DNA of 64,000 bases from a virus: positions 1 through 64,000 of IMG/VR virus record IMGVR_UViG_3300035698_022838. One strand, 5' to 3'. Position 1 is the first letter of the stretch; each line of letters begins with the position of its first letter. The translations under genes and the position numbers were made by a program. Shown piece after piece: positions 14,514 to 51,416 of this stretch. Below the pieces are notes generated by a model that saw only the letters and a program-made list of their open reading frames with translations, did no database searches and was not told the origin of the DNA.

Positions 14514-14993
14514 TTACCCCATAGATGCTTCTATATCCCATTGAATTCTATCCAATGGACTTTCGTCACCACCATCATTATTAATTTTCTTCTTAACAAA
14601 ATCAACTAAACCAGGTTCATGCATTGCATTTTGAGCCATTTCATAACCATAATCAGATTCAACTTCACCTTCAGACCATGCCATGCTATCAATCCACTCT
14701 TGATATGATTCATCAGTCCACTGGGGAGAATTGCTAACACTAGTAGTACTAGTTGTTTTTTCATCAGGAACAAATAAATCTGGCCCATCATAATCAATGC
14801 TCTCACGATATTTCCTTAACATATGATCAACATCACTTTTTCCCCAAGATGCTTTTTGGCTAAGTTCTTTTCTTATCTTATCAACTTCTTCTTCAGTTTG
14901 TGCAAGATGCAGTTTCCTGATCAATTGAGCTCCTGGTGTACTTGGATCGTTGAATTCATTTATGAACTCTTCATATAATCTTAAATTTTCCAT
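14514..14993 (-). CDS. Putative internal head protein (CTS-like N-terminus)
   Basis: Starts MENLRLYEEFINE; GATATATA box at 15015-15022. Confidence 0.55.
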   Translation of the reverse strand: MENLRLYEEFINEFNDPSTPGAQLIRKLHLAQTEEEVDKIRKELSQKASWGKSDVDHMLRKYRESIDYDGPDLFVPDEKTTSTTSVSNSPQWTDESYQEWIDSMAWSEGEVESDYGYEMAQNAMHEPGLVDFVKKKINNDGGDESPLDRIQWDIEASMG

Positions 14994-15023
14994 TCTTTGA
15001 TATATTGTTTTTTGTATATATCA

Positions 15024-15707
15024 CTAAAGATTAGCAAGATTCGCCTCATGGTGATCTAAACCTAAACGAATACCTACCCTAGGTCTACCTCTCATATGAC
15101 TTATGATTTCTCTTAGTCTATAAGGATCCAGATTGTTACCATCTAGACCTGCATCCATAGCTTTTCCTGGATGGAACTTACTATGTTCATTCGAATGTAA
15201 ATGACCATGTAAATGGATTACATAATCACCAATACCTGACCAGCTAGCAATAGGACAATGGAATAAAACAAATCTAGTTTTAATATGCTTATCATTTCTT
15301 TTTTCCCCAGGCTTAACTGTGGTCAGAGGTAAGTAATATTGAACTGATGAGAATAGATCCTGCACTCCACCTTTATTTCTAGCAATATGGTGATCATGAT
15401 TTCCTAAAATTAGATGAATATTTTTACAAACAATTCTATCTCTAAATTCTCCTATTGAATCAAATCCACCAAAACTCCAATCACCTAAGTGAAATAGAAT
15501 ATCATCTTGGCCCACCATATTATTAATATTATTAACAATTGTGTTGTTCATATGTTCGACTGAAGAGAAATCCCTTCTTGTACCACCCTCAGTCCACTTG
15601 GTAGTACCACTACATATATTCGGGTGATTATAGTGTGTATCTGATGTAAAGAATACATTTTGCTCGTTATTTAATAATAACTTCATTTCAGGGTTTATCA
15701 TGTTCAT
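15024..15707 (-). CDS. Calcineurin-like metallophosphoesterase
   Basis: 'FTSDTHYNH', 'HLGDW', 'LGNHD', 'HLHGHLH'. Confidence 0.9.
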   Translation of the reverse strand: MNMINPEMKLLLNNEQNVFFTSDTHYNHPNICSGTTKWTEGGTRRDFSSVEHMNNTIVNNINNMVGQDDILFHLGDWSFGGFDSIGEFRDRIVCKNIHLILGNHDHHIARNKGGVQDLFSSVQYYLPLTTVKPGEKRNDKHIKTRFVLFHCPIASWSGIGDYVIHLHGHLHSNEHSKFHPGKAMDAGLDGNNLDPYRLREIISHMRGRPRVGIRLGLDHHEANLANL

Positions 15708-15744
15708 AGTTGCAAATATAGATAATATTTACGTAATAAAAAAA

Positions 15745-16410
15745 TTATTTTTTCTTTGTTATAACCTCATCGATTATACCATATGCTTTTGCTGCTTCAG
15801 CATTTAACCAAAAATCTCTAGTTGCATCTTCTTTTACTTGTTTTGCATCTTTACCACAATATCCACCAAGTAATTCAAAAAGTAATTCGTTATACTTTTC
15901 GAGCTCATCAATATTAACCTTAGCATCTTGTATATTTCCACTAAACCCACCAGAAGCCTGATGTAACATAACACGAGAGAATCTTAATGAATATCTTTTA
16001 CCTTTGGTTCCTGCACCAAGTAATACAGATCCCATAGAAGCTGCCATTCCTGTATTAACTGTAATAATATCAGATTTAATGTAATCCATTACATCAACCA
16101 TTGATAGACCACATTTGATGTATCCACCAGGACTATCAATGTGCATAGTAATATCTTTTTCATCTACTGAATCCAAGAACATCAACTGTGCTTGTACTAT
16201 TGTTGACATCATATCATCAACTGGACCAGATATCCATAAAAGTCTATCCATCATCAACCTTGAGAATATATCCATTTGAGTAACTCTCATTTCCCTTTCT
16301 TCCAAGATATATGGAGTCATTGAATCTTCAATATGTTGGTTGTAGCGATGCATTGATAGTGAACTTATATTATGTTCACTTTTTGCGTATTTGTTAAATT
16401 CATTTATCAT
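15745..16410 (-). CDS. clpP: ATP-dependent Clp protease proteolytic subunit
   Basis: 'MDIFSRLMMDR', 'IDSPGG', 'GMAASMGS', 'VMLHQ', 'RDFWL.AE.A..YG.IDEV'; N-terminal 'TPYILEERE' as in Bacteroidota ClpP. Confidence 0.96.
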   Translation of the reverse strand: MINEFNKYAKSEHNISSLSMHRYNQHIEDSMTPYILEEREMRVTQMDIFSRLMMDRLLWISGPVDDMMSTIVQAQLMFLDSVDEKDITMHIDSPGGYIKCGLSMVDVMDYIKSDIITVNTGMAASMGSVLLGAGTKGKRYSLRFSRVMLHQASGGFSGNIQDAKVNIDELEKYNELLFELLGGYCGKDAKQVKEDATRDFWLNAEAAKAYGIIDEVITKKK

Positions 16411-16468
16411 ATTTATTATATGGTATTTTTTATTTTTGATTCGTATTTTTTGGTAAAATTCTCCATTA

Positions 16469-16597
16469 ATTGCCTGACGTTGCCACCTAATACAAACCAG
16501 ATATTATTAAGTATCTGGTTTTAATATGTTTATAGATTAGTAGAGTGACTTAGAATTGCCACCTATTGCCTGAGATTGCCCGATTATATAATTTGCC
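16469..16597. repeat. TTGCC direct repeats in 10-bp phase flanking a hairpin
   Basis: TTGCC at 16470, 16480, 16556, 16566, 16576 (and 16593). Confidence 0.8.
16494..16521. terminator. Hairpin / probable terminator
   Basis: AAACCAGATA-ttattaag-TATCTGGTTT. Confidence 0.55.
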
Positions 16598-16784
16598 AAG
16601 AGATACTTTTCTCTCCCGACATAGCTTTATATTCAGAATACATTCGATGTCTTGCCTTGTCACAATTCTTACATGGTTGTATATAGTGATCTTTTTTGTC
16701 CCACCTATGTCCAACAATCTTACATGGGATACGTTTCATTTTTGTTCCAAATGTAACTGGAAGACCAAATTCATTAAATTTCAT
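16584..16784 (-). CDS. Small Cys/His hypothetical protein
   Basis: 'CKIVGHRW......CKNC' motif. Confidence 0.6.
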   Translation of the reverse strand: MKFNEFGLPVTFGTKMKRIPCKIVGHRWDKKDHYIQPCKNCDKARHRMYSEYKAMSGEKSISWQII

Positions 16785-16788
16785 AAGC

Positions 16789-17115
16789 TTAAATTAAAGA
16801 TCTATTAACTCCTCTATTTGCAACCCCAGAAACTCCAGGGATGCTAGAAAAAACAGTATAAACACTCTTTATAGTGCTATCCCATGGATATGCACTATTC
16901 TCATTAAATCTTTTCATAGGTTTAGCAGAGACTAAACTAACATCACCAAGTCTATTAGCTAACTTGCATCTTATTCTTGCGTTACCGTACTCAGGATGTT
17001 GAAACTCAACATACATAACACCATTTCCATTAGGATTCCATTTAGGTTCGGAAAACTGTGGATTTTCTTCATGTTCGCTAAATAATTCAGTCAAAGTCTC
17101 TATTAAATTTTCCAT
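16789..17115 (-). CDS. Hypothetical protein
   Basis: Coupled to trx stop. Confidence 0.6.
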   Translation of the reverse strand: MENLIETLTELFSEHEENPQFSEPKWNPNGNGVMYVEFQHPEYGNARIRCKLANRLGDVSLVSAKPMKRFNENSAYPWDSTIKSVYTVFSSIPGVSGVANRGVNRSLI

Positions 17116-17417
17116 TATTCTTTTCTATTCTTTTCTATGATTTTAAGCAACTGAGGTTCTGGTATTACACCAGAGATTCGATCAATCTCTTTTTCGTCCT
17201 TCATAAATATCATTGTTGGTATACTACGGATTCCAAATTGCGCTGCTAATTCCTTTGATTCATCAACGTTAACCTTCAAAATTTTCAATTCAGTATCTTT
17301 TTCGTTAATACTATCTAATATTGGTGATAGTGTTTTACATGGGCCACACCAAGGTGCCCAAAAATCAACTATTGTTAAATCTTTATCTATTATTTTTACA
17401 AATTCTAATGCGTCCAT
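17115..17417 (-). CDS. trxA: Thioredoxin
   Basis: 'VDFWAPWCGPCK', 'FGIRSIPT'. Confidence 0.96.
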   Translation of the reverse strand: MDALEFVKIIDKDLTIVDFWAPWCGPCKTLSPILDSINEKDTELKILKVNVDESKELAAQFGIRSIPTMIFMKDEKEIDRISGVIPEPQLLKIIEKNRKE

Positions 17418-17465: not shown

Positions 17466-17786
17466 CTATCCAACGATAGTTTGTACCATATCTGGATTTT
17501 TTCTATAAATCAAATGAGGATCTGGTGTCATAACAACTGATATTCCATCAGATAGTGTATGTAAACTAGTAATATATTCTTCAACAGCATCTTTTAAACT
17601 TGTTGATATAGAAAGTTTTGACATAATATCATCAGCTATCTGCCCTATTGACTCTTCAAACTTAGCAGAATCATGAAAATTAAAATATTTTTCATATTTC
17701 TTTACAAAAGCCCTTATCATCGATTGCTGTTCTTCTGATAAAGAAGCTTCGTCTATAAAATCATCAAACTCCAAAAGTATTCTCAT
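17466..17786 (-). CDS. Putative internal head protein (CTS-like N-terminus)
   Basis: Starts MRILLEFDDFIDE; GATATATA at 17791-17798. Confidence 0.55.
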   Translation of the reverse strand: MRILLEFDDFIDEASLSEEQQSMIRAFVKKYEKYFNFHDSAKFEESIGQIADDIMSKLSISTSLKDAVEEYITSLHTLSDGISVVMTPDPHLIYRKNPDMVQTIVG

Positions 17787-17862
17787 ATACTATATATCCG
17801 GAACATTTTAAAAGAAGACAATATAATATTGATATATAGATTTATAAATTTAATATAAAATA

Positions 17863-18455: not shown

Positions 18456-19898
18456 TTATTTATTTTTCATCATGAATTCAACACCAGAACGTGGATTGCC
18501 TTTAGATTTTTTAGGATCATAATCTGGATCAAAACATTTAGTTACCATAAAAATTTCATTTGAATTGATCATTAATTTCAAATGTTTTATTAGTTTTCTA
18601 TTAAATAAGAATGGTGCAGATTTTTTCCCTCTATCAACAACAGAAACATCAATTGGTAATTTTGTACCATTGAAATCAACATTTAATTTAATAATAGGTC
18701 TTTTTTCGGTTATTCTACTATTATTTGCTCCTGGATAAACAACGACCTCTCTTACTAGCTTATTCTTAAATTTCTTATTGCCAATTTTCCAGTATACATA
18801 TCCATTTTTAACTTTAATCTCATCACAGTGTATAGAAGACGTAAGTCCACCATTTCCGCTGTCTAAAAGACCAACAACTTTACCAATACCTTCAATATCA
18901 ATAACTTCTAGGTATCCAGCTTCGGTTAGTGTATATTTCCAATTTTCCTTGTCAATAAGGAAACCTATAATCTTATTAACAATAGGAGAACCTAAAACTT
19001 TAGATATTCCCTCAACACCTGGTGAAGAGTTTACTTCTAAGAGATAAGGTTTTTTGGTTTTTTTATCTATCATTATATCAACACCACACCAAATACATCC
19101 GACTACGCTTGCAGCTTTTATTGCAATATCTTCAATTTCTTTAGAAATCTTGATTTTTGAAACACTTCCACCTAAAGAATAATTCGTTCTAAAATCATCA
19201 CTTCCTGTAGTTCTTTGCATTAAACCGATTATCTTTCCATTTAAAACATGAATTCGTATATCTGAATCAGAATCTATCATTTCCTGAATAATAACCTCAT
19301 TATCAGGATCTAGTTTTTTAAGTGTTTGGTATACTGATTTGAATGAATTTTGTGACTCGACTATAGAAACCCCGATCCCTCTAGATCCATTTAGAAGTTT
19401 CATTATTATTGGAAACTTACCACCTATTTTTTTAACTATTATATCGAGATCAATATCCTCGTTTGATAATAAAACTGTTCTAGGAACTGGAAGTCCTGCC
19501 CTTTCTAGGTATTCTCCACTAATGTATTTATTAGTACAGATTTGCATCGATTTTAAACTATTAACAATAAAATAACCAGAAGCAGTAAGCTCTTCTACTA
19601 TAGCTTCACTATGTACGCTCTTTATCATTCCTGCTCTGAGTAAAATAGCTGATGTTTCTGGATCTATCTTAACTTTCCCATCAGGAGTTATTATGGTATG
19701 TCCGAGGTCACTTTTCTCCATTTCGGATTCAGTAGTATTAACAAAATGGAATCCAATTTTTCTTTTTTTACATTCTTTTGCTAGCGGTTCACTTATACTA
19801 CCCTTAAATTCACCACCACTAAGCATAATTATTTTTACCTTAGGCTGGTTTTCGGATTCATATAAAAACCCCTTGAAATTTAATACTCGATCGGTCAT
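18456..19898 (-). CDS. RimK-family ATP-grasp ligase fused to a retropepsin-like (RimB/'ATP-dependent Zn') protease
   Basis: 'NK......L...GLP.P.T', 'FPII.K...GS.G.GV', 'QE.I', 'DFRTN...GG', 'GVDI', 'LEVNSSPG.EG'; C-terminal 'LDSGN', 'E.RP.I...V', 'DR......L..R'. Confidence 0.88.
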   Translation of the reverse strand: MTDRVLNFKGFLYESENQPKVKIIMLSGGEFKGSISEPLAKECKKRKIGFHFVNTTESEMEKSDLGHTIITPDGKVKIDPETSAILLRAGMIKSVHSEAIVEELTASGYFIVNSLKSMQICTNKYISGEYLERAGLPVPRTVLLSNEDIDLDIIVKKIGGKFPIIMKLLNGSRGIGVSIVESQNSFKSVYQTLKKLDPDNEVIIQEMIDSDSDIRIHVLNGKIIGLMQRTTGSDDFRTNYSLGGSVSKIKISKEIEDIAIKAASVVGCIWCGVDIMIDKKTKKPYLLEVNSSPGVEGISKVLGSPIVNKIIGFLIDKENWKYTLTEAGYLEVIDIEGIGKVVGLLDSGNGGLTSSIHCDEIKVKNGYVYWKIGNKKFKNKLVREVVVYPGANNSRITEKRPIIKLNVDFNGTKLPIDVSVVDRGKKSAPFLFNRKLIKHLKLMINSNEIFMVTKCFDPDYDPKKSKGNPRSGVEFMMKNK

Positions 19899-19930
19899 AT
19901 CGTGTTACGTGAATTATTTTATCTATATAT

Positions 19931-20200
19931 TCACTTACGTTCAGGCATTCCGTATTTTTCGCCCATTTGTGTACAAACCCCCCCAATTTTACGCAACATA
20001 TTCATAGTACCCTCATAATTGTTCTCTGGACTTTCTGTATACCATATATTACCAGCGACTCCTAGCATCACATTTAAAGCTTGCATTGCTGTTCCCATAT
20101 TAAATTCTTCGATCATATCTGGGCGATTTGGGTTCGAGGTTTCTTTTTCCTGATACTCTCTTTCAGTATCAAATGCTTTATAAACTTCTTTTCTTTCCAT
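19931..20200 (-). CDS. Hypothetical protein (possibly all-alpha NTP-PPase-like)
   Basis: 'VY.A.D.ER.YQ...LRKI..V......E.YG.P.R'. Confidence 0.5.
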   Translation of the reverse strand: MERKEVYKAFDTEREYQEKETSNPNRPDMIEEFNMGTAMQALNVMLGVAGNIWYTESPENNYEGTMNMLRKIGGVCTQMGEKYGMPERK

Positions 20201-25306: not shown

Positions 25307-26404
25307 TTAATCATTTTCAAGCTCTGATATATCTGAAACATTGATTAAAGCTAGTTTAATATCTTGTTGTCCTGCGCGTTTTAATTTTGTTAATACTTCT
25401 TCGAGTCCACTAGCACGACTAAATACTAAACAGCCACCAGAGAAAGAATTAACTAGATCTGTTTTCCCGTATTTTTTAGCTCTGTGAATATTAATTCCAT
25501 AATCACCTACTCCTCCATTACCTGGTGAAAATGTATCGAAATTACAATCTTTTGGATCTGCTACTGGTTGGTATCTATCAACTTTAACTGGACCAGCTTC
25601 AACTATAGCAGTATATTTCTTATGCTGCCCTATTTTATAATCATAAACACCAGGCTGTAAAATAGCTAATCCATTTTTATTTATATTTCTAGCTGCTCCA
25701 CTTGCAATATACCAATTTCTAAATGCTATAGGTAAATATATTAAACCAGGAACAGTAGTTCCTTTATATTTATAAACTTTTTTATTCTTTTTTGGTGACA
25801 TTAAAACGAATAAATCTATGAAATGGTTTGGTGATTTTCTCTTGTTTTCTAACGTATTCCTAATTGCAATAAAGTTATATTTACTCCAATCCATTTTCTG
25901 TGCATAATTAAGATTTTCTAAAGCTTTATATAAAACTTTCCATGTTATTTCATCGGTTTTCTGGAACTTAAAAGGTGAACTATTTGGCAACATTCTCCAA
26001 TCTGGTTTGATTGCTGCTTTTGTTGAACCACTACTAAATCTATTGAATAATGCTAGGTTAGATTTTAGTTTATCTTCGCCTCCACTAGTACTCTTAATAC
26101 CAGATTCTATCTCTTCAACACTATCTGGAGAATCAGTAAACATTATTCCTCCTGCTACTAAGCCAGCTATTAAAGTCGGATCTTTCAACAAAGTTTCTTT
26201 TAAGCCTTTTCCTGCCTCAGTAGCAAGAAAAAGATCCAAACCAGTGATCCCATCTATGCCATTACTTTTATCTTTTTTTTCTAGTTCATCATTTATTACT
26301 TTAGAATTCGCAAGAGCTTTTGCAACTACATCAGGTACAACCTTTGCTGCTTGTTCTTCATTTAGTACATTTTCTCTGAAGTTATTAAAATTTAGAATAT
26401 CCAT
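25307..26404 (-). CDS. Putative peptidoglycan-acting protein (YkuD/L,D-peptidase-like His-Cys motif), CTS-like N-terminus
   Basis: 'T.PG', 'G.A.LQPG.Y...IG.HK.Y.A', 'GINIHRA.......VNSFSGGCLVF'; starts MDILNFNNFRENVLNE. Confidence 0.55.
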   Translation of the reverse strand: MDILNFNNFRENVLNEEQAAKVVPDVVAKALANSKVINDELEKKDKSNGIDGITGLDLFLATEAGKGLKETLLKDPTLIAGLVAGGIMFTDSPDSVEEIESGIKSTSGGEDKLKSNLALFNRFSSGSTKAAIKPDWRMLPNSSPFKFQKTDEITWKVLYKALENLNYAQKMDWSKYNFIAIRNTLENKRKSPNHFIDLFVLMSPKKNKKVYKYKGTTVPGLIYLPIAFRNWYIASGAARNINKNGLAILQPGVYDYKIGQHKKYTAIVEAGPVKVDRYQPVADPKDCNFDTFSPGNGGVGDYGINIHRAKKYGKTDLVNSFSGGCLVFSRASGLEEVLTKLKRAGQQDIKLALINVSDISELEND

Positions 26405-31576: not shown

Positions 31577-32098
31577 TTACTTATTCGTATAATAGATTTC
31601 TTCGATTTGTTCTGGTTTAATCTTTGCCTTATATTCATCACCCTTTCCTTTAAGAGAATGTGGAATCCCTATAATTAATCCATCTTCAACACCAACTATT
31701 TCAAATTCTGAATCGAAAAAGAGGTTTCGTTTTTCACCAAATCTATTTATGTCAAAGTTAAAATCTCCATCATCTGTGTCCATTTCACTATCTTTTCCAA
31801 TCTTAGCTTTATGTATACTGGCTAATCTTTCTCTTTCCTTTGATATAACCTCTTTTATATAATCAGGAGCACCCTTTCCTTGTGTTGGTATATCAGCAAC
31901 TACTGTTATTTTTGTAATTATACCAGCTTTTTTATCTGCTAATAACTCTGTTATTTTAGCAGCTACTTTAGAATATGGTAATTCAACATCAGATGTAGCC
32001 TTTATATTTTTCTGGGATTCAACCTCATTATAAACAGGAACCTTAGATGATTCATTTATATAGTTAGAAAAATCCTCGAATTCTTTTAAATTATCCAT
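31577..32098 (-). CDS. Putative internal head protein (CTS-like N-terminus)
   Basis: Starts MDNLKEFEDFSNYINE; GATATATA at 32117-32124. Confidence 0.55.
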   Translation of the reverse strand: MDNLKEFEDFSNYINESSKVPVYNEVESQKNIKATSDVELPYSKVAAKITELLADKKAGIITKITVVADIPTQGKGAPDYIKEVISKERERLASIHKAKIGKDSEMDTDDGDFNFDINRFGEKRNLFFDSEFEIVGVEDGLIIGIPHSLKGKGDEYKAKIKPEQIEEIYYTNK

Positions 32099-32142
32099 AT
32101 TGTAATTTATTTTATCTATATATCATAAACAACATTTAGCTT

Positions 32143-34186: not shown

Positions 34187-34822
34187 TTAGGCTTTCTTAC
34201 TTGATTTTGATACACCAAGTATTTTAGTAGCTTCTTTATATACATCTCTTATTTTTTGGGATGCATCTAATTTTATTAAGCGTCTACTTTTTTTGTATTT
34301 TTCTATGATTGGTACAGTTTTTTCACGATATTCTTTAAATCTTCTTTCTATAGTTTCTTCGTTCTTATCATCTTCTCTTCCTTCTCTTTCTGCTCGTCCC
34401 ATTATTCTTTTTTTAGCAGTTTCTTCCCCAACCTCTAAATAGATACAATGGTTTAAAGAAACCCCTAACTTACCAAAGATAGAGTCAAGGAGTTTAGTTT
34501 GTTTTACTGTTCTTGGAAATCCATCTATAATTATATTTTTAGAAAAATCTATTTTTCTGAGTCTTTTTCTTAGTAATCTACCTATTGCACGATCAGAAAC
34601 TAATCCTCCACTAGAACTAGTTTTTTTTAATTCTTTATCTTCTGATGATCTTATTAGATCACCTGTAGAAATATGCACAAAACCATTGTTATCTGCAAGC
34701 TTCTCTGAAATAGTACCTTTACCAGAACCCGGAGGTCCTAACATAATTATAATTTTGCCCTGTTTATCCGGAATCTGCATTTCATTAAGAAATGTTGAAA
34801 AATCCACTGCTTTATCTACCAT
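34187..34822 (-). CDS. adk: Adenylate kinase (short, LID-less type) with CTS-like N-terminal extension
   Basis: 'MLGPPGSGKGT', 'HISTGDLIR', 'IDGFPRT..Q', 'R.DD..ETI..RF..Y...T.P'; leader MVDKAVDFSTFLNE. Confidence 0.92.
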   Translation of the reverse strand: MVDKAVDFSTFLNEMQIPDKQGKIIIMLGPPGSGKGTISEKLADNNGFVHISTGDLIRSSEDKELKKTSSSGGLVSDRAIGRLLRKRLRKIDFSKNIIIDGFPRTVKQTKLLDSIFGKLGVSLNHCIYLEVGEETAKKRIMGRAEREGREDDKNEETIERRFKEYREKTVPIIEKYKKSRRLIKLDASQKIRDVYKEATKILGVSKSSKKA

Positions 34823-34908
34823 CTATGTTTTAATAATTTTAAGCTTTAAAACTCTTTCGATGGCTTATATATCCTTGGTAATAGTAAAAATTAATAATTA
34901 TGTCCGTA

Positions 34909-35802: not shown

Positions 35803-37203
35803 TTACATTTTTTCATATTCTCTTTCCATTAGATCTATATCGATTTGCATTTTAAGCATTCGTTTTTTTGTAGCTTTTCTTTGTGCATATAAATCTTTAA
35901 CTATAATCTTTAGGATTGGTTTTTCATTGTCACCGCCAAATACTGCACCAGAACAAGTTTTAATCCAGCCATCCTTAATACTTTCAAAGTTTTTCCCTTT
36001 ATATACTTCTGGTGATATTCCCCATTGAACAATTACATTTGGGTATAGCGAAGCAAAATCATAACAAGCAACCCACTCATGCAGACCTCTTATCGGTTCT
36101 TTAACATATCCACCAGTAAATTTCACATGTGTTTCATCCTTCCGTTCGTTTACAAAAACCTGTTTACGTTCTAAGAATTTTTTAAGCATCATTACTTCTG
36201 TAGACCAAACAGGTGAAAGAGCTCTACTAATTTCCACTGTATTTAGGTTTGCTATTTTGAAGTAAGTTAGCATTGTTTTTAGCTTAACATCTATATAATG
36301 CACCAATGCACAGTCAATAACATTATAAAGAATAAACTTAGGAAAATCTGACTGATAAAGATCTCTTAATGAACCATCATATGATATTTTCTTTAACCCC
36401 GTAGCTTTTTCAGCAACATAATCTAATCTATTACTTTCCTTAATCTTAATTACTCTGTCCCATTTTTTATAAATCTCCAGATAATCGACCATTGTTAAGT
36501 GCATAGGTAAACTATTTTTACCAATTAGATATTTACCAGGGGATACTATTTTAGGATCTATACCTAATTTTCTAGCTCTATTGATAAGATATGGCCAGTC
36601 ATATCCAAACCAATTCCAGCCTGTAATCAAAGCCATTTTAGGAGCAAAATCTTTGAAAAATGTATATAGCATATCATATTCACTTTCAAATTGCTTATAT
36701 TTAAACGTCCACTCATCACCCATAGGTTCCAAGTATTTATTTATTCTCTTGTAGATATCACCTTGTTCTTCTGCTGTTAACGGATCTAGCCCAAACACTA
36801 TAGATTTACATTTATCAGTTGCTACTGCTATCGAGAGTACCTTATTCGGGGTATTTACAGTATCTAATGCATCCTTCATCTCATTGGTCATCTCAACCTC
36901 AATATCAATAAAGTATTTTTTAGGTGTTTGGTATTCCCATAATGGTTTAGTTAGTTCAGGATCTGCCTCGTTTAACATCTGGACCATTCGATATTTATCA
37001 TATCTTTGAGTTGGGACTTTACGAATCGGAAAACCATTCCAAGTTTTCCATTCTGGATCCCTTCTTCGGTCTGATTGTGAACATACTTCCCATATAAATC
37101 TTTCTTCTTCCGGTATTGGGATCTGTATGAATATACGATCTCCTTCTTCAGAAAATGAAGAAACTCTTAAATAAGTTCCTTTGTTTTCAATGTCTGTTAT
37201 CAT
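35803..37203 (-). CDS. Family B DNA polymerase, N-terminal subunit (3'-5' exonuclease plus palm motif A; gp43A-like)
   Basis: ExoI 'IDIEV', ExoII 'TGWN..GYD.PY', 'LDYVAE', ExoIII 'YN..D', 'GGYVKEP', motif A 'YDFASLYPN'; ends in fingers helix O 'LYAQRK..KK.ML'. Confidence 0.95.
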   Translation of the reverse strand: MITDIENKGTYLRVSSFSEEGDRIFIQIPIPEEERFIWEVCSQSDRRRDPEWKTWNGFPIRKVPTQRYDKYRMVQMLNEADPELTKPLWEYQTPKKYFIDIEVEMTNEMKDALDTVNTPNKVLSIAVATDKCKSIVFGLDPLTAEEQGDIYKRINKYLEPMGDEWTFKYKQFESEYDMLYTFFKDFAPKMALITGWNWFGYDWPYLINRARKLGIDPKIVSPGKYLIGKNSLPMHLTMVDYLEIYKKWDRVIKIKESNRLDYVAEKATGLKKISYDGSLRDLYQSDFPKFILYNVIDCALVHYIDVKLKTMLTYFKIANLNTVEISRALSPVWSTEVMMLKKFLERKQVFVNERKDETHVKFTGGYVKEPIRGLHEWVACYDFASLYPNVIVQWGISPEVYKGKNFESIKDGWIKTCSGAVFGGDNEKPILKIIVKDLYAQRKATKKRMLKMQIDIDLMEREYEKM

Positions 37204-37258
37204 CTATTATTTTTTAATTGAATCCGATTCTGGGTTATTCGGATTGATATATAAGTAT

Positions 37259-37582
37259 ATGAATGAAAAGATCAAAAGTTTCGAGAATTTTCTCCTTGAG
37301 TTCTACACATCAGATGCTCCGGGGAGTGTAGTAGTACCAGGAAATTGGTATAAAGATACCGTTAACTCACGTAATTATAAGCCTGCACATAGTCAAACAC
37401 CACAGGTAGTAGATGCAATGTATCAAACAACAGATTTATATAATTATCTTGATACTTTAGAAGAAGAAGAAGAATTTAATAATATATTAAAAGACGGAAA
37501 AAAAGGACCGAAGGAATTAATCAAATATTTAAAGCAAAGAATACACGACGAACTTTCTCCAACAGCAAAGACATCAAAATAA
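37259..37582 (+). CDS. Putative internal head protein (CTS-like N-terminus)
   Basis: ATG at 37259 gives MNEKIKSFENFLLE; GATATATA at 37246-37253. Confidence 0.55.
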   Translation: MNEKIKSFENFLLEFYTSDAPGSVVVPGNWYKDTVNSRNYKPAHSQTPQVVDAMYQTTDLYNYLDTLEEEEEFNNILKDGKKGPKELIKYLKQRIHDELSPTAKTSK

Positions 37583-37594
37583 AGACAATTTACA

Positions 37595-38425
37595 TTGAAA
37601 ATCAACAAAGTCCCTTTAATAAAGGAATCTTACTACGCGGAAGCGCACCCAAAAGATTCCATATTCTTACACCATACCCAAGGCCATAATAGACCCGATT
37701 GGGTAATAAAATCATGGGGAAGAGAAAGAGCAACATCAACAAACAAGATAAGATCCGGAGTTTCCTATGTAATAGGGGGCACTGATATTCTTACGTTAGA
37801 TGAAAACTATGATGGAATAATAGCAGAAGCATTTAAGCCCAATTTCTGGTCACACCACCTTTACATTAAAGCAAAAAGTAATACATTCTTAAACCAAAAA
37901 AGTATTGGTATTGAGATTTGTAATTATGGAGATCTGATTAATACGTTAGATGGTGAATTTTACACATCAACAAATATACCAATCGATCCAAAATATGTGA
38001 TAGAATTAAATGAACCATTTAGAGGTTCTAAATATTTCCACTCATATACAGAAAGTCAAATAGAATCATTAAGGTTACTATTATTGAAATTAGCTAAAGA
38101 GTTTGAGATAGATTTAGCTAAAGGATTAAAAAGGGAATTGAATAAAACGATTAAAGAAATGCCTAAATTCCATACTGTATTCGAAGGTAAAAAATGGTTA
38201 AACCATAACGGATTTACTGATAACAGAGGTAAAAGACTACATGAGAACAACAGGGAGGATTCTAATTATACACAGGCAGCAGCATCTGTTGGTAAAAGTG
38301 CATTCGATTTAGCACCAAATGCATTAAAAGGCTACCCAGGCCTCTGGTCACATACTAATGTAAGAATAGATAAAAAAGGTATTTATCCACACCCATTAAT
38401 TATAGAACTTATTAACTCTTTTTAA
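37595..38425 (+). CDS. N-acetylmuramoyl-L-alanine amidase (Amidase_2), probable endolysin
   Basis: 'IFLHHT', 'W..H', 'N..SIGIEICNYG', 'YT..QI.SL..L', 'SH.NVR.DK'. Confidence 0.85.
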   Translation: MKINKVPLIKESYYAEAHPKDSIFLHHTQGHNRPDWVIKSWGRERATSTNKIRSGVSYVIGGTDILTLDENYDGIIAEAFKPNFWSHHLYIKAKSNTFLNQKSIGIEICNYGDLINTLDGEFYTSTNIPIDPKYVIELNEPFRGSKYFHSYTESQIESLRLLLLKLAKEFEIDLAKGLKRELNKTIKEMPKFHTVFEGKKWLNHNGFTDNRGKRLHENNREDSNYTQAAASVGKSAFDLAPNALKGYPGLWSHTNVRIDKKGIYPHPLIIELINSF

Positions 38426-39873: not shown

Positions 39874-40284
39874 TTATCTATAATCCTCTCTTTTTTCTTT
39901 TCTTACAAGATATTCATATAGATATTTTAAACCTTTAATATATGCTTTGGATGTTCTAAAATGTCCTTTAAAGCTTTTTATAGCATTACCTTGTCCCTCT
40001 GACATCTCAGTATCTTTTTTGGGATTATACCTTTTAACAACTCCTGTTGGGTGTATAGTATAGAAAACGTTACCATATCCCCTTTCTTCTGGTTGCTTCT
40101 TTCTTTCGAATTTTATAGTATTGTTACCTGCTTGTTGATCTGACGTAATATCTTTAAATCCAAGGCCTAAAATATTCTCGTATTCCTGACTTTTCTTAAT
40201 TTTTGCTAAATCAAGATCTCTCCTAGAATCCTCTTTGTATTCTTCCTTAGGATCATATTTATCATATTCTAAAAGGTTATTCAT
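39874..40284 (-). CDS. Hypothetical protein
   Basis: Starts MNNLLEYDKY (weakly CTS-like). Confidence 0.6.
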   Translation of the reverse strand: MNNLLEYDKYDPKEEYKEDSRRDLDLAKIKKSQEYENILGLGFKDITSDQQAGNNTIKFERKKQPEERGYGNVFYTIHPTGVVKRYNPKKDTEMSEGQGNAIKSFKGHFRTSKAYIKGLKYLYEYLVRKEKREDYR

Positions 40285-41652: not shown

Positions 41653-42177
41653 TTATCTGCTTATAATGTATGTTTTCTCTTCTGAACCTTCTTGCATTGA
41701 CCATTCATTACCTAACTCGGCGACAATCACAGATTTAACCTTTTCCATGTAATTCTCTGCTTTACAATTTAAGTTCATTTCGTCAAATATTCTAACCACA
41801 CTTGGATTCTTTTCAAGATAACTCATTAAAGCTTTTGAAGCCTGATTGAATAATCTAACTAAATCATTACCTTCTATATTGAATGTTATATCATTTAACT
41901 CTGGTAGTTCGTTATTATTAACTGCTATATCCTGTATCTCTTCAGGTGCTATTTCATTCAAATTTAAAACTGCATAAGAATTCTTAGGCCCTTCAGTTGT
42001 TTCGTATTGTGAATATTTACCTATTATAAAAGAAAATCCTTTTGTTTCTCCACTTTCAAGCCCAAGGTTAAACATATAATAACAAAGGTCTCCGTCTTTC
42101 CTAAATAGAAAAGGCATGCTACCAAAGCCATCTGCTTCATTTATAAATTCTATAAAATTTCTAATCTTTCTTTCCAC
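41653..42177 (-). CDS. Putative internal head protein (CTS-like N-terminus)
   Basis: GTG start, MERKIRNFIEFINE. Confidence 0.55.
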   Translation of the reverse strand: MERKIRNFIEFINEADGFGSMPFLFRKDGDLCYYMFNLGLESGETKGFSFIIGKYSQYETTEGPKNSYAVLNLNEIAPEEIQDIAVNNNELPELNDITFNIEGNDLVRLFNQASKALMSYLEKNPSVVRIFDEMNLNCKAENYMEKVKSVIVAELGNEWSMQEGSEEKTYIISR

Positions 42178-42192: not shown

Positions 42193-44127
42193 TTATACCT
42201 CTGTTACGAGACTATTAAATAGATTACTAACCTCTTTAGGTACTAATTTTTTGAACGTCGAAAAATCTTCGTCCTTTAGTGCTGCTCTAACTCTAGTTGC
42301 TGATGTCAATCTTGGGGTTTTTTCTAGTGAAAAGGACTTATGTAAATTATCCTTCAAATCGGATACCTTAATGTAGTCCATCTGCTTCTTATAATCGTCG
42401 CTACGGTCATCCCCAGTACCAACTAAGCGCGGATCGTAACCATCTTTAACTAACTTATTTATTGCAGAACCCAATAGTCCTCTAGATACTATAAAATATC
42501 CTTCTATCTCATTATTATTCGATACGACAGCATCCATATAATGTTTGATTGTATTCTCATTAAATGGTGATTTACCGGATTTATTATGACCTGGATAAAC
42601 TACGATTACGAATGTTGGTAGATCATTCTTTTTCTTCATTACTCTTGCCATCTTCAAATGTCCATTATGAAATGGTTGAAATCTACCAATTATTACATTA
42701 ACTTTGACTCTTTTTTGCGTAGTCTCATTCTCAGTTAATAATATAGCTTCTTGTTGTGGTTGCGATTCAGGTTGGGTTTCCTCATTTGAGCTTTCCTCTA
42801 TGGTTTCGAGTTTACTTCTAAAATTATCATAAGATTGTAATGGATTTTCTAGGTCTTCTTCCTCACTTTCAGTTTGTATATAATCAACACTTGGTACAAA
42901 ATCCTTTTTAAAATCAGCAAATGAAATAAACGTTGATTCACTTATTACTTCTTTGGGTTTTTTAATGTACTTTTTAATGTGGTTGATTAACCCATTTAAT
43001 TGTTTTAGCATACCATCGGTAACAATTCCACTAGTTCTAGATTTGATTTTTCTAAATGAGTTTAGAATTAGCTTAAAAAGAGATTCGTATGCATCATCTT
43101 TCTTAAGATATTTTAAAACTTTTCTATCATTTATTATTTCCTTATTTAATCTAAATTCATCTCTTTTAAGATATTCGGGTTCTTCGAAATCAGTACCTTT
43201 ATATTTATCAGCATATTCATCTAAAAATTTCACAAACACGCTTGATATAAAGGAAATATACCTTTCATCGTCTGTTGATCCTTCAATTTCGAATTTATCT
43301 AAACCTCTTTCAAGTATGAAGTTCATTACATCTAATAAAGTTATACCTAAAAAATCACTAGGCTTTTTAGACTCTTTCTTAGCAGATTTATGTTTAGCTA
43401 TTTCAGTAAATATTGGATCAACCATTTTTGCTAATACTGTTTCGTCCTTATCTTGACCACCAAACTTGAATACAACACCCTCGACATCCTTATCAAGATC
43501 GTCATTTAATGCGGTTTTAGATAACTTAGGATTAAGTGTTTTAATTATAAATCTAACAAAACTTGAGGTCTTAAACTTCTCGATTAGCTCTTTATTTGGG
43601 GTATTTAAAAAATCCATCAATTCAGATTTCTGATCCTCATCCAATTTACCTTGGAAAATTATAGGAGGTCTTTCAACATCCAGTAAATCAGCCCAATCAT
43701 TTAACTCATTTTTATCATGTATTATTTTAGTGATCTTCTTAGAATTATCTAAGCGGTGTATAAATGAAAGGATAAGATTATTTTTAGGTAATCTGTCGTA
43801 TGTTATCTCAACTGGTTTAGTTGAGGCAAAATATTCAAAACCAAACCTAACCCCTCTTGGGATTTGCTCTATTATATTCGGTTGTAAAGATTCTATATAC
43901 TGTATTGGTTTCTCATAATATTTCATGAGTGTTCTATCAACCAATGTAATTGGATGTCTTTGATCTCTTCGGTAAAACTCAAATTTACCGGTGCTTCTAT
44001 TCCTTTCGAACGAAAACGCTGAACCATCCATTTTTTCATTAATAGTCACAAACTTATTGAAAAGTTGTTCTATAAAATCTGATCCCTTCTTATTATAAAT
44101 ATCATATAAATGATTTATTCCTGCCAT
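42193..44127 (-). CDS. Fusion: RNA/DNA-ligase-fold nucleotidyltransferase plus HIGH-family (NMNAT/cytidylyltransferase-like) domain
   Basis: N-terminal motif I 'INEKMDGS', 'FGFEY', 'PIIFQG', 'EGVVF', 'LAKMVD'; C-terminal 'IIGRFQPFHNGH', 'G.DR..DY', 'SATRVR.AL'. Confidence 0.8.
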   Translation of the reverse strand: MAGINHLYDIYNKKGSDFIEQLFNKFVTINEKMDGSAFSFERNRSTGKFEFYRRDQRHPITLVDRTLMKYYEKPIQYIESLQPNIIEQIPRGVRFGFEYFASTKPVEITYDRLPKNNLILSFIHRLDNSKKITKIIHDKNELNDWADLLDVERPPIIFQGKLDEDQKSELMDFLNTPNKELIEKFKTSSFVRFIIKTLNPKLSKTALNDDLDKDVEGVVFKFGGQDKDETVLAKMVDPIFTEIAKHKSAKKESKKPSDFLGITLLDVMNFILERGLDKFEIEGSTDDERYISFISSVFVKFLDEYADKYKGTDFEEPEYLKRDEFRLNKEIINDRKVLKYLKKDDAYESLFKLILNSFRKIKSRTSGIVTDGMLKQLNGLINHIKKYIKKPKEVISESTFISFADFKKDFVPSVDYIQTESEEEDLENPLQSYDNFRSKLETIEESSNEETQPESQPQQEAILLTENETTQKRVKVNVIIGRFQPFHNGHLKMARVMKKKNDLPTFVIVVYPGHNKSGKSPFNENTIKHYMDAVVSNNNEIEGYFIVSRGLLGSAINKLVKDGYDPRLVGTGDDRSDDYKKQMDYIKVSDLKDNLHKSFSLEKTPRLTSATRVRAALKDEDFSTFKKLVPKEVSNLFNSLVTEV

Positions 44128-44540: not shown

Positions 44541-45452
44541 TTATTTTATTTCATTAGGAATTTCATAATCCCCATTTGTTAAATATCTAATTAAATCTTT
44601 TTTTATTTCTTCAATTTTGTCTTTGTGTTTAAAATCATCTTTAATAACTAATTTCCATGCGCTTTCGAACGTTTTAACATCCTCTGGCTTAACCCCATTA
44701 CCGAATAATAAATTTACAAGATCTCTTGGATCATTTGTTATAAGTGTTCCCTTCTTAGAAATTATCTTTGGTTTAGCTAATCTTTTTTTAATCCCCTTGT
44801 ATGTTTTCTTATTTCTATATACTCCATCACTTAATCTTAATACATAAGCATTATAATCTTCAATTTCACCATTTTCATCTTTTGATATTATAGCTTTCAT
44901 AGATGATAATATTGCTTGAAATAACCAATTTCTATGTGCGGATTTATACTTACTTTCACTAATTTTATAATCTGGTGAATAAAATATAAATTTTGCCCAG
45001 TCCATATCACTAATCGGAATCAAATCTAATTGAACCAGCCCATTCTTCTCTTCGCCTTCTATTGGCCAACCTACCGACAATACATTAATACCCTTCATTA
45101 ATCGTATCTCTGTATCAAATCCTAATTTCTTTGGCAATTCGTTGGTTAATATTTTTTCCAGAAAATCTAATACCTCGCTCTTTTTAATCTTGAATTTATT
45201 TGCAATAAATGCTTTATTTATACCAAGATCTATATCGCCAGACGTTTCGTTTGGATCTTTTTTCTTACCAACACTTCCTATAATAATGTATGCACTATCT
45301 AACTTACCATTCCCAATAATTGGAAATAATGTATCCTCTATTGACTTTATAGTTTGCGGAACCTCACCTTCCTTTATTCTTCTGGATTTAGTAATTGCAT
45401 TACCACCCTCAAACAAAGATGTAAACTGATTATATTTAAGCAAATTACTCAC
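44541..45452 (-). CDS. DNA polymerase beta-superfamily nucleotidyltransferase, CTS-like N-terminus
   Basis: 'IIGSVGKK.....SGDIDL' (GS...DxD), third Asp in 'VQLDL'; leader MSNLLKYNQFTSLFE-GGNA. Confidence 0.75.
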   Translation of the reverse strand: MSNLLKYNQFTSLFEGGNAITKSRRIKEGEVPQTIKSIEDTLFPIIGNGKLDSAYIIIGSVGKKKDPNETSGDIDLGINKAFIANKFKIKKSEVLDFLEKILTNELPKKLGFDTEIRLMKGINVLSVGWPIEGEEKNGLVQLDLIPISDMDWAKFIFYSPDYKISESKYKSAHRNWLFQAILSSMKAIISKDENGEIEDYNAYVLRLSDGVYRNKKTYKGIKKRLAKPKIISKKGTLITNDPRDLVNLLFGNGVKPEDVKTFESAWKLVIKDDFKHKDKIEEIKKDLIRYLTNGDYEIPNEIK

Positions 45453-45940
45453 TATTTAAAATTGAAATATTTTGAAGCATTATTAACATATTCAGCATAA
45501 ATACTTTGTTCTTTACCTTCAGGATTCTCAGGATCAAACTTACCACCGAAAGATTTTCTACCTTTTAATATTGCATCTCTATAAAACTTCTCATAATCAG
45601 CTTCTTTGTTATTACCCTTTCTTCTTATATCATCACCCCATTTAGAAAGTATCTCATCTTGACTCCCACGTAGAGCATCTGCTGACATGCTTGATGTTCT
45701 CCCATTATTAAATAAATCACTTATCCCGCTTGTGAGTCCTGCTAAACTATTAATAGCACCCTTAAGTAATCTCTTTAATGCACCAGCTTCATCATATGTC
45801 GTTTGATATATCTTTTCTTGTGGGGTTTCTGCAGAAATCCTACTTCTAATCTCCTTAATCTTTCTTTCGGCATCACTATAATTAGTATAATAGCGCTTTG
45901 ATTCATTTAAGAAATCATCAAAAGTTTTTAAATTGTCCAT
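45452..45940 (-). CDS. Putative internal head protein (CTS-like N-terminus)
   Basis: Starts MDNLKTFDDFLNE; GATATATA at 45961-45968. Confidence 0.6.
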   Translation of the reverse strand: MDNLKTFDDFLNESKRYYTNYSDAERKIKEIRSRISAETPQEKIYQTTYDEAGALKRLLKGAINSLAGLTSGISDLFNNGRTSSMSADALRGSQDEILSKWGDDIRRKGNNKEADYEKFYRDAILKGRKSFGGKFDPENPEGKEQSIYAEYVNNASKYFNFK

Positions 45941-45960
45941 AGCATGGGTTTTATTTATGC

Positions 45961-45968
45961 TATATATC
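45961..45968 (-). promoter_or_regulatory. Late-type promoter box GATATATA; representative copy
   Basis: + strand 2311, 17831, 37246; - strand 9189, 14247, 15015, 17791, 20217, 32117, 34866, 39713, 41353, 50408, 51111, 51438; AATATATA variants 1666, 19924, 54583, 58834. Confidence 0.75.
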
Positions 45969-47973: not shown

Positions 47974-47974
47974 A

Positions 47975-49247: not shown

Positions 49248-49262
49248 ATACTTGGTTTTAAT

Positions 49263-49297
49263 AAAAAGGGATAGAATATAATAATCCTATCCCTTTT
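49263..49297 (-). terminator. Intrinsic terminator after gp32
   Basis: AAAAGGGATAG-N12-CTATCCCTTTT. Confidence 0.8.
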
Positions 49298-49312
49298 AGT
49301 ATTTAATGGATT

Positions 49313-50338
49313 TTAAAGGTCTTTGTATAGATCATCTAATGATGATGCTGCGTTTCCAGTTGTTACCAGAGGTGCAACTGGAGGTGCAACTGGAGGCGTA
49401 GTATTTTCGCCGATCTTAGTTGCATTAACTTCTTCGTGAATTTTACCTATATCATTTCCAGCTGGTGGAACATGTGCAGGTATTTCTACTGGTGGTGTTT
49501 CCACTGGTGGTATTGATGCAGCTGTTGGCGTTGATGTAGCTGCTATATTTACACTACCAATTACTTCATTAACCATTCTACCATCAGGCACAGTAGCTTG
49601 GATGATACCCAAGACTCTTTCAGTTAATGCGCTATCCCAATCCTTATATTCGAAACTAGTCAAGTTATCAGGTCCAGTTTTTAGGAATTCCATAATAGTA
49701 TCCATATCTGTCTGATTTTTTGCCATTGATTTTCCTTCTACTGCAATCGCACAAGGATCACCTACGAACGAACACATATCATAATTATTCCATTCGCCAA
49801 CTTTCCTAGTGTGTATATTGAAAAGTTTACCTTCGAAAAGATCGAATGGATTACATGACTTAGAATAAGATGAGGTAGGCTTAATTTGTGCTTCTAGCAT
49901 CTCGTTGACTTTCTTTCCGTATTTGAAAATCATGATTTTGCCTTCGAATTCTGCATTGTTTTTATCTTCTACAATTTGTACTAGAGAATAATAATCCTCT
50001 TTCCTACCAAAATTCTTAGCTAAATCTTGGTCTGCTGCAGAATGCGAATTCTTAAGCTTCCAAAACATATCCTTTAATATAGATTTCTTACCAACTGTTG
50101 ACGGGCAATCCACTGGGAAGCTGTCTCCTGTAGCAGGGTCATCTAAATAAACGTAATACTTTTGGATTTTGGATTTGGAAACATCTGCGTGGTTTGGTAA
50201 AAACCTGATGATTGATTCGTAGATACCGTCTTTTCCGTTTTCTGGGTATGGCTTATAAAAGCCTGAATCCGTTCCTTCTCCTTTTGGTTTGTTTACAAAA
50301 TCTTGGGTGTCCAAGTTAAAAATGTCTAAATTACTCAT
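49313..50338 (-). CDS. Single-stranded DNA-binding protein (T4 gp32-like)
   Basis: 'IIRFLP', 'CPST.G', 'EGKI.IFKYGKK', 'NPFDLFEG..F', 'NNYD...F', acidic tail 'LDDLYKDL'. Confidence 0.92.
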   Translation of the reverse strand: MSNLDIFNLDTQDFVNKPKGEGTDSGFYKPYPENGKDGIYESIIRFLPNHADVSKSKIQKYYVYLDDPATGDSFPVDCPSTVGKKSILKDMFWKLKNSHSAADQDLAKNFGRKEDYYSLVQIVEDKNNAEFEGKIMIFKYGKKVNEMLEAQIKPTSSYSKSCNPFDLFEGKLFNIHTRKVGEWNNYDMCSFVGDPCAIAVEGKSMAKNQTDMDTIMEFLKTGPDNLTSFEYKDWDSALTERVLGIIQATVPDGRMVNEVIGSVNIAATSTPTAASIPPVETPPVEIPAHVPPAGNDIGKIHEEVNATKIGENTTPPVAPPVAPLVTTGNAASSLDDLYKDL

Positions 50339-50406
50339 ATTCCTTAAATTATTTTTGAATGTTTCTTAATATTATCTCTAAATTCCTTAAAAGTTTCCCT
50401 TAAAGT

Positions 50407-51084
50407 CTATATATCTTTTTTTTCTTCTGAAAAGTGTGATTTTAGGAATAAAGTTACCCAAAATGCGTCAATTAAATCATCTATAGGCTTATTGATAGCC
50501 AATGACTTAGTGATCCACTCTTCCTTATTATCAGCAAGTATAGTAGTGAAGATTTCCAAATTAGTTTCATCCTCTTTATGATTAATTATTACATCATATA
50601 ACTCATGCTTTTTAGCATTACCCTTAAATGCAAACTTCTTTACTGTAGTAGGAGAGAATACGTAAAAGTTTTCGCTACCTACCATTTCTATTATCTCTTT
50701 TCTCAATAAAGCAGTGGCCATTGATATGTCAATTAAAGCATTACCAGCGGAAGCAAAACTTAGTCCCTCTATAGCTACTACGAACTCATCATCACCTACA
50801 AGCTCTAAAATTCTAGACCAAAATTTATCAACTAATTCTATGAAATAATCAATCTTAATTCTTTCTCGCTCGACGTAATCCTTTGGTATAACTTTCTTAT
50901 CCATGAAGATAAGGTCCACCATATCAACATCATCTAAGATTGCAAAAGGCTTTACCTTAGTTTTTTTGAGTGACTCTGGTGTACGTTCGCTTCTAGTTAA
51001 AGAGCCAAAGTGAAATTGATTATCTTTTAATATGCAAAATGCAGGGGAATTTAACGAGAAGTCAATACCAACTAGTGTTTTCAA
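50407..51084 (-). CDS. RuvC-like (RNase H fold) nuclease / Holliday junction resolvase
   Basis: 'GIDFSLNSP', 'IEG.SF', 'P.TVKKFA..GNA.K', 'DD..DA'. Confidence 0.8.
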   Translation of the reverse strand: MKTLVGIDFSLNSPAFCILKDNQFHFGSLTRSERTPESLKKTKVKPFAILDDVDMVDLIFMDKKVIPKDYVERERIKIDYFIELVDKFWSRILELVGDDEFVVAIEGLSFASAGNALIDISMATALLRKEIIEMVGSENFYVFSPTTVKKFAFKGNAKKHELYDVIINHKEDETNLEIFTTILADNKEEWITKSLAINKPIDDLIDAFWVTLFLKSHFSEEKKDI

Positions 51085-51123
51085 TGTATTAGTTTTAAAT
51101 GGTTATGGTGTATATATCACCAC

Positions 51124-51148
51124 AAAAAAAGAGGGAAATAATCCCTCT
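51124..51148 (-). terminator. Intrinsic terminator
   Basis: A-tract+GAGGGA-aataa-TCCCTCT. Confidence 0.7.
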
Positions 51149-51170
51149 CAAATAAATTATGTGGTTAATC

Positions 51171-51416
51171 TTAGATAGCAGGTTTTACCGCTTCTCCTTT
51201 TTTACCAGTGTAGTTGTATTCATTTGTTAGTTTATCATAACATTTTTTCATAGATTCTTCCGTTAAACAATCGACAATGTCATTTAAAACTCTTTGGTCG
51301 TTACCTGAAGCAGCAACTAAAAGATCTTTCATGTGTTGTTTTAGATCTGCTTTACCTGCCATAGGTTGGCCATATTTCATTTCGTTAATCTTTTCTAGGT
51401 CTGAATATGTTTTCAT
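51171..51416 (-). CDS. Putative internal head protein (CTS-like N-terminus)
   Basis: Starts MKTYSDLEKINE; GATATATA at 51438-51445. Confidence 0.55.
   Translation of the reverse strand: MKTYSDLEKINEMKYGQPMAGKADLKQHMKDLLVAASGNDQRVLNDIVDCLTEESMKKCYDKLTNEYNYTGKKGEAVKPAI

Follow-up and report, generated by a model that had tools for sequence, protein, structure and literature searches.

The window analyzed in this study comprises positions 1 to 64,000 of a 162,880-bp record of an uncultured virus (IMGVR_UViG_3300035698_022838; 32% G+C; estimated completeness 59%). Eleven genes in this window, together with five elsewhere in the record, were found to encode proteins that begin with the same kind of short peptide, hereafter called the tag, giving a set of about 16 in the 59%-complete genome. 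As judged from the sequence, this shared peptide is probably a capsid-targeting propeptide of the phage T4 type, carried by a payload of roughly 15-20 proteins, and the tagged proteins are most likely loaded into the phage head. The phage is an uncultured T4-like giant phage, known from metagenomes alone, and belongs to a large, aquatic clade related to the Lak megaphages. When 21 kb of sequence was compared with a phage collection by megablast, no match was obtained; a viral collection contained at least 250 related contigs, some longer than 400 kb. An initial annotation of the window had pointed to 11 N-termini sharing the peptide, and all 11 were recovered at their positions.

The tags are leaders of 12-22 residues, located at the extreme N-terminus of otherwise unrelated proteins. 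Their grammar has two parts: a core, aliphatic-x-x-[FY]-x-x-[FY], is followed after 0-10 residues by an [ILVM]-x-E site, mostly L/I-N-E. All 16 tags finish in [ILVM]-x-E (or have an aromatic residue at the aliphatic place), and Phe reached 3.9 bits at position 0 and 4.2 bits at position +3 of the position matrix, these being the two aromatics three residues apart. A strict pattern, [FYW]xxF[IL]xE, was set a priori from T4 IPII and IPIII, which start with M-K-T and then YQEFIAE in the T4 genome record, and not from the studied genome. Within the first 11 positions, this pattern was observed 6 times, compared with an expectation of 0.21 derived from internal positions in the same proteome (P 1e-7). 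When a position matrix was trained on three related genomes only, 11 N-terminal matches were found in the studied genome (0.16 expected), while decoy matrices trained in the same manner on internal windows yielded 0-2 sites. The matrix scan also identified 16 proteins with 17 sites in a 99%-complete relative (1.2 expected), and 80 related capsid-gene loci gave 21 N-terminal matches (0.48 expected). The enrichment of N-termini over internal positions amounted to 30-70 fold. The tagged genes outside the window (at genome positions 103635, 109110, 109998, 111929, and 120422) flank head genes. By contrast, and as had been claimed for replication and early genes, gp32, a UvsW-like helicase, DNA polymerase B, ClpP, and GT2 were not flagged by the tag profile; neither were open reading frames (ORFs) that resemble topoisomerase subunits by eye, nor any of the large ORFs of the presumed tail/baseplate region.

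Conservation of the tag was assessed in several protein families. A scan of viral contigs with the adenylate kinase (Adk) protein for related loci returned no relatives, and Adk orthologues were gathered from the records behind the capsid loci. All 12 of these orthologues were tagged, with the free positions of the tag differing among them. The residue after the tag Glu was Arg in 11 of the 12 and Lys in the other; therefore, the Met that follows the tag in the studied genome is not a hidden start. For a tagged 303-residue protein, 456 homologues were found, all without a functional name; about 115 of the 120 homologues listed among these 456 were tagged, the few exceptions started later, and the leader closed in E just before an invariant G-G. 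Moreover, in three head-adjacent proteins compared across about 50 related phages, the aromatic pair and [ILV]-x-E were kept while the spacer between them ranged from 0 to about 10 residues. Within each family, sequence conservation set in at the residue directly after the Glu. The mature parts of the tagged proteins were mutually unrelated by BLAST, with the exception of one pair outside the window. The tag also proved to be an added extension on Adk and on a RimK-like protein, as had been proposed. The Pfam match of Adk (PF00406, E 5e-36, 124.5 bits versus a cut-off of 26.8) covered residues 27-179 and profile positions 1-149 of 151, with the domain beginning near residue 25, and other Adk homologues in the phage database aligned only from residue 19-25; in the RimK-like protein, the first strand lies a few residues past the tag. 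In a structure model of the 303-residue protein with a predicted local distance difference test score (pLDDT) of 89, residues 1-20 scored near 50 and formed a short helix outside the fold.

The genome encodes both a capsid protein and a head protease of the T4 type. A Gp23-family major capsid protein is located at genome positions 113891-115594 (PF07068, 133 bits, above the cut-off). It is nearest to that of the uncultured 462-kb phage LR756500 (47% identity), followed by the Lak megaphages of Prevotella (39%) and then by phages of Flavobacterium and Tenacibaculum, and its identity to every database phage is below 60%. Given these capsid relatives, the host is probably a member of the Bacteroidota. 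Directly upstream of the capsid gene, and likewise outside the window, a 677-residue protease-scaffold protein is encoded on the minus strand at 115614-117647. Its residues 1-230 constitute a prohead protease of the S77/S80 kind (phrog_207, E 5e-37; PF20034, above the cut-off), and this domain aligned with T4 gp21 (BLASTP E 7e-8), including the GEL-x-HP and SSR motifs around what we take to be the catalytic His and Ser. With regard to potential cut sites, the N-terminal extension of the capsid protein contains S-L-N-E followed by S, invariant in the four genomes compared, and the scaffold tail of the protease protein contains several conserved L/I-N-E sites.

Tagged genes were also linked to a common upstream element. 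The box [AG]ATATATA occurred 53 times on the coding strand of most genes, compared with 17 times on the other strand, and it sits mostly 14-28 nt ahead of start codons. Genes that follow a box include the protease-capsid operon, a gene predicted to encode the portal, and large ORFs in what is presumed to be the tail region; by comparison with T4 TATAAATA, we infer that it is a late promoter. The initial annotation had placed a box of this type near most of the tags. Consistent with that, [AG]ATATATA was present within 60 nt upstream of 12 of the 16 tagged genes, compared with 28 of 171 other genes (Fisher P 2e-6). In the window, 8 of the 11 tagged genes have the box directly, two more lie in a boxed operon (45940 to 41653, headed by the box at 45960-45968), and the gene starting at 26404 has a variant box only. 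Among the four unboxed tagged genes of the whole set, two are those downstream genes of the 45960-45968 operon, and at least one other is also downstream.

The tag resembles not only the T4 leader but also the scaffold of the phage's own head. In the T4 IPIII leader, residues 4 and 7 are the main determinants of targeting, and residues 8 and 10 determine processing; replacement of residue 10 by Asp blocked processing and left targeting intact (PMC9026906). The four conserved positions of the tag are these four determinant positions (4, 7, 8, and 10). Furthermore, the C-terminal half of the 677-residue protein contains 13-14 tandem repeats of 14 residues (42-nt units in which 71% of nucleotides match), and in all four genomes Y-x-x-Y-[LIV]-A-E is present in every repeat. 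When the pattern was loosened, 13-14 of each genome's 20-38 matches fell in the protease-scaffold protein. The T4 gp23 maturation site also fits the same seven-residue pattern. These combined observations, on the scaffold repeats and on gp23, suggest that aromatic-x-x-aromatic-aliphatic-x-Glu marks head-core substrates in both phages. In LR756500, the scaffold repeats were found to be degenerate. A structure model of the 677-residue protein (mean pLDDT 48) provided nothing usable beyond a long helix.

On the basis of these comparisons, the following course of events can be proposed. Tagged proteins would be made late in infection, alongside the head proteins, and would be held through their hydrophobic/aromatic core on the scaffold/protease core of the prohead as it assembles. 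Cleavage after the Glu by the gp21-type protease would then free the mature protein inside the head, where mature proteins would remain with the DNA and from which they would probably exit with it at the next infection. Core binding, cleavage, packaging, and ejection are thus steps that we infer. The initial annotation had gone further, to proteins acting before any phage transcription, and this part is speculation. As for its proposal of a T4-like capsid-targeting tag, the architecture, the capsid and protease machinery, the add-on nature of the tag, and the link to the late box all support it, but the tagged cell-wall enzyme that it included is not supported.

Of the four rival explanations considered, only one is serious, namely that the prohead protease recognizes the peptide as a longer substrate motif and clips it off as a propeptide, with the peptide having no targeting role and head entry, if any, occurring by other means. 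This differs from a targeting propeptide just in which component of the core holds the leader. Because the T4 gp23 site and the scaffold repeats share the skeleton, the skeleton could be simply what the protease cleft binds. However, the T4 head protease acts inside the prohead, and a substrate must therefore reach the prohead first. Moreover, the aromatic core and the cut site are separable, being up to 10 residues apart in orthologues, and this variable spacing fits two separate functions; in T4, mutations separated targeting from processing (PMC9026906). We consider a role as protease substrate alone to be unlikely.

It is very unlikely that the tag sorts proteins to some other place, such as a replication/assembly compartment, the tail, or a hub that, like a sliding clamp, captures short hydrophobic motifs. 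Many tagged genes do lie among replication genes and not in the structural module, and short aromatic motifs act as docking peptides in other systems. Nevertheless, the tag agrees with the capsid-propeptide and scaffold sites in its invariant Glu and its L/I-N-E ending. Five of the tagged genes are immediate neighbours of head genes, the large tail/baseplate ORFs are unflagged, and the T4 ip genes are likewise scattered, according to T4 genome coordinates. A sliding-clamp-binding motif or a membrane helix was set aside because neither explains the invariant Glu or the match to capsid and scaffold sites. Even smaller is the probability that the tag serves as an N-terminal signal for degradation or regulation, such as one for a phage ClpP that times protein removal. 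N-terminal degrons exist, and a ClpP homologue is encoded among the tagged genes (15745-16410, minus strand; PF00574, E 3e-56); to our knowledge, however, an acidic, aromatic motif is unlike the N-terminal signals for ClpX or ClpA, and a degron would leave the T4-tag skeleton, the scaffold repeats, the late-box link, and the basic mature proteins unexplained. Finally, a compositional effect of AT-rich translation starts at the nucleotide level has next to no probability: although the genome is AT-rich and AT-rich codons encode every residue typical of the tag (F, N, I, K, E, D, Y, and L), internal positions of the same proteome are far poorer in the motif, the motif lies at varying distances from the Met, two or more synonymous codons are used for each of Phe, Leu, Ile, and Glu across the tags, and relatives of 36-40% G+C retain the amino-acid pattern, so that the tag, as far as sequence comparison can tell, is selected as a peptide.

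Returning to the capsid-targeting propeptide, several points weigh against it. A profile built from the scaffold repeats alone enriched N-termini weakly (4 versus 0.8 at the loosest cut-off); therefore, tag and scaffold are alike only in the four-position skeleton. In the capsid protein, the predicted cut site has no aromatic pair, and the head modules of LR756500, Lak-A2, and PTm1, which are distant members of the same capsid family, show no comparable tag. In addition, the clade is without any cultured member, and no reason is evident for a virion to carry an adenylate kinase.

A more far-reaching version can be put forward only tentatively. It is conceivable, if rather doubtful, that the tag is a free-standing copy of the scaffold repeat, with one rule serving scaffold self-assembly, loading, and clearance, and with an injected payload that resets the host's energy charge and translation. 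The scaffold half would then be a long helix of 13-14 two-heptad units, each with an aromatic pair and a cut site, and the cargo leaders would slot into the helix bundle as additional units.

Function could be assigned for 3 of the 11 tagged proteins of the window, namely Adk, a RimK-like ATP-grasp protein, and a putative Pol-beta/family-X-like nucleotidyltransferase. The tagged Adk (211 residues) is encoded on the minus strand at 34187-34822, with tag codons at 34781-34822 and a box at 34865-34873. It has a G-P-P-G-S-G-K P-loop, and its mature form has an isoelectric point (pI) of 9.9. The internal proteins of T4 are basic proteins of the head, and among the predicted mature cargo of the studied phage, 8 of 16 proteins had a pI of at least 9, compared with 18% of the proteome (P 0.004).

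The RimK-like ATP-grasp protein (480 residues) lies on the minus strand at 18456-19898 (tag codons 19857-19898; box 19923-19931). It had been described as a RimK-protease fusion; the RimK part was confirmed (PF08443, E 2e-38, 132 bits), but the protease part was not, with a C-terminal Zn_protease-like match (PF05618) scoring 23.2 bits, below the cut-off of 27. Its orthologues in two related genomes (G005 and G011) are tagged. In the T4-like Pelagibacter phage Mosig, the RimK-like homologue (gene Mosig_00005) also starts with the aromatic-x-x-aromatic-L-x-E skeleton, and a tag on a RimK-like enzyme is therefore not confined to one clade. In the unrelated Yersinia phage YerA41, gene 066 encodes a RimK-like homologue that is annotated as structural from particle mass spectrometry; this was taken only as a hint, because the list of 63 particle proteins includes many replication enzymes.

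The predicted nucleotidyltransferase is the 303-residue protein, which is encoded from a GTG start on the minus strand at 44541-45452 (tag codons 45408-45452). Residues G59, S60, D73, and D75 are invariant (GS...DxD). There was no Pfam match, and when its model was searched with Foldseek, the top matches were all DNA polymerase beta or lambda (E 1e-4), with template modeling (TM) scores of only 0.35-0.40. A second tagged nucleotidyltransferase-like protein lies between head genes outside the window and has relatives in Lak, cyanophages, and Maribacter phages; two further head-adjacent tagged proteins are also located outside the window. In the cultured flavobacterial Maribacter phage Molly_1 (NC_062751, 4631-23344), at least six small ORFs were seen to have another leader in common, of the form K-[STA]-L-[VI]-E-[ST], and one of these ORFs is a homologue of the tagged nucleotidyltransferase-like protein of the studied genome. 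A homologue of the prohead protease was not detected in phage Molly.

A tagged 365-residue protein (phrog_3000; 25307-26404, minus strand; tag codons 26357-26404) has a 3-residue spacer between the core and the cut site and is the gene with the variant box upstream. It gave a weak structural-atlas lead to peptidoglycan-binding-like viral clusters (TM score about 0.5). Similarly, a tagged 622-residue protein encoded downstream of the capsid gene, outside the window, gave weak atlas leads to lysozyme-like/SLT folds. When both proteins were compared with solved structures by sequence searches, these peptidoglycan-related leads were not confirmed. The 622-residue protein was also considered as a capsid paralogue, and this was rejected, with no similarity detected.

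The cell-wall enzyme that had been counted among the tagged proteins corresponds to an Amidase_2 gene (37595-38425). It does not carry the tag and lies merely downstream of a tagged 107-residue ORF on the plus strand (37259-37582; tag codons 37259-37300; box 37246-37254). The start at 37259 is an internal ATG of the mechanically called ORF 37181-37582, and the GATATATA box ends 5 nt before it. The 107-residue ORF and the Amidase_2 gene (37259-38425, plus strand) share one frame, with TAA and 12 nt between them, and the amidase is called from a TTG; a fusion of the two was set aside because the TAA and 12 nt separate them.

The remaining tagged genes of the window are all on the minus strand. 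They encode proteins of 159 residues (14514-14993; tag codons 14955-14993; box 15014-15022), without a Pfam or PHROG match; of 106 residues (17466-17786; tag codons 17748-17786; box 17790-17798), whose orthologues retain the core; and of 173 residues (31577-32098; tag codons 32051-32098; box 32116-32124). A 162-residue protein (45452-45940; tag codons 45902-45940) is encoded by the gene behind the 45960-45968 box that heads the operon, and the last gene of this operon encodes a 174-residue protein from a GTG start (41653-42177; tag codons 42136-42177), in whose orthologues conservation starts directly after the Glu. A highly conserved 81-residue protein (51171-51416; tag codons 51381-51416; box 51437-51445) is a probable member with an I-N-E ending. 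It is the weakest of those listed, in that the second aromatic is Leu in this protein and in all of its orthologues; the orthologues are 62-78% identical, and all of their leaders close in [ILV]-N-E. A 136-residue protein (39874-40284, minus strand) was regarded as a possible member and was not counted, since it has a conserved aromatic core with no [IL]xE site after it. In this family, the aromatic pair is kept in four genomes and the aliphatic-x-Glu behind it is absent; the protein may be targeted without cleavage.

Inside the operon of tagged genes, there is also a 644-residue fusion of an RNA-ligase-like and a cytidylyltransferase-like part (HIGH motif; NMNAT-type) at 42193-44127 on the minus strand. 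It was rejected as a tagged protein: the Pfam ligase match starts from residue 27, and the fusion was counted as untagged because its I-N-E runs directly into the ligase K-x-D-G motif. Elsewhere in the window, a 466-residue ORF (35803-37203, minus strand) combines the exonuclease domain of a family B DNA polymerase with no more than the initial portion of the polymerase domain, which suggests that the family B DNA polymerase gene is split. Adjoining the fibre-like genes at 1681-4795, a 125-residue ORF (135-512, plus strand) begins with a collagen-like Gly-X-Y run.

The class of mechanism proposed here is already known from the T4 capsid-targeting sequence, from T4 Alt, and from the propeptides of phiKZ-like ejection proteins. 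The T4 capsid-targeting sequence of internal proteins was reportedly described by Mullaney and Black in 1996. In both phages, an extreme N-terminal leader of 10-20 residues with aromatics three apart and then aliphatic-x-Glu is found on unrelated proteins, and a gp23-type capsid, a gp21-type protease, and scattered late genes are shared as well. The studied phage belongs to a distant lineage, however, and has a payload of about 16 in 59% of a genome compared with a handful in T4; its tag is variable and not near-identical, with a varying spacer before the cut site and Asn preferred at P2, and its cargo, known here from sequence alone, includes housekeeping-type enzymes. In the T4 record (NC_000866), the N-termini of gene 61.1 (18966-19130) and uvsW.1 (at about 114209) were also seen to fit the strict pattern; we do not know of their products as head proteins. 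The T4 sequence is present on IPII/IPIII and IPI and is removed by gp21 (PMC9026906, PMC3012670, PMC5694885). T4 Alt is an ADP-ribosyltransferase that is packaged in the head and processed by gp21 (PMC5694885, PMC9026906). Like Alt, the tagged enzymes of the studied phage are predicted to be enzymes, rather than small basic proteins only, that are head-loaded via a clipped propeptide and delivered to the next host; the enzyme classes differ, being adenylate kinase, RimK-like ATP-grasp, and Pol-beta-like nucleotidyltransferases in the studied phage.

The inner-body and ejection proteins of phiKZ, 201phi2-1, and SPN3US are cut after x-x-E by gp175/gp245-type proteases (PMC5694885, PMC7411985). 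Common features are the many head-internal proteins, a gp21-related protease that cuts after Glu, and propeptides thought to be prohead-targeting; in the phiKZ-type phages, however, the propeptides are mostly longer than 100 residues and have no short common tag, whereas the leader studied here is short and T4-like. ORF-300 of Tenacibaculum phage PTm1 (annotated as prohead core scaffolding protein and protease) likewise lies upstream of the capsid gene and has an N-terminal protease followed by a long repetitive tail, but its repeats differ in sequence, and the PTm1 head module is without F-x-x-F tags. Encapsulin cargo-loading peptides are also short peptides that bring unrelated enzymes into an HK97-fold shell; they are usually located at the C-terminus, attach to the shell protein, and stay uncleaved, and neither a protease nor DNA is involved. 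In a literature search, such tags were not found described outside T4 and its close relatives. What is new here is the lineage, the large enzymatic payload, the two-part leader grammar with N at P2, and the scaffold repeats that share the skeleton.

In T4, a handful of small proteins and a single enzyme are known to carry the capsid-targeting sequence, and this sequence has been suggested as a general protein-loading route of T4-like phages (PMC9026906). A conserved rule for the tag allows cargo to be predicted from sequence alone, and a relation between the scaffold repeats and the cargo tags becomes testable. If the tag does act as a capsid-targeting propeptide, the rule would list the proteins injected by phages that cannot be cultivated, and a second, natural set of loading tags would become available for the engineering of T4-like capsids. 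Should the tag in addition be a free-standing scaffold repeat, the head of these phages would be an evolvable delivery vehicle, with which some 15-20 proteins (an adenylate kinase and a ribosome-modifying RimK-type ligase included) would be injected ahead of the expression of any phage gene.

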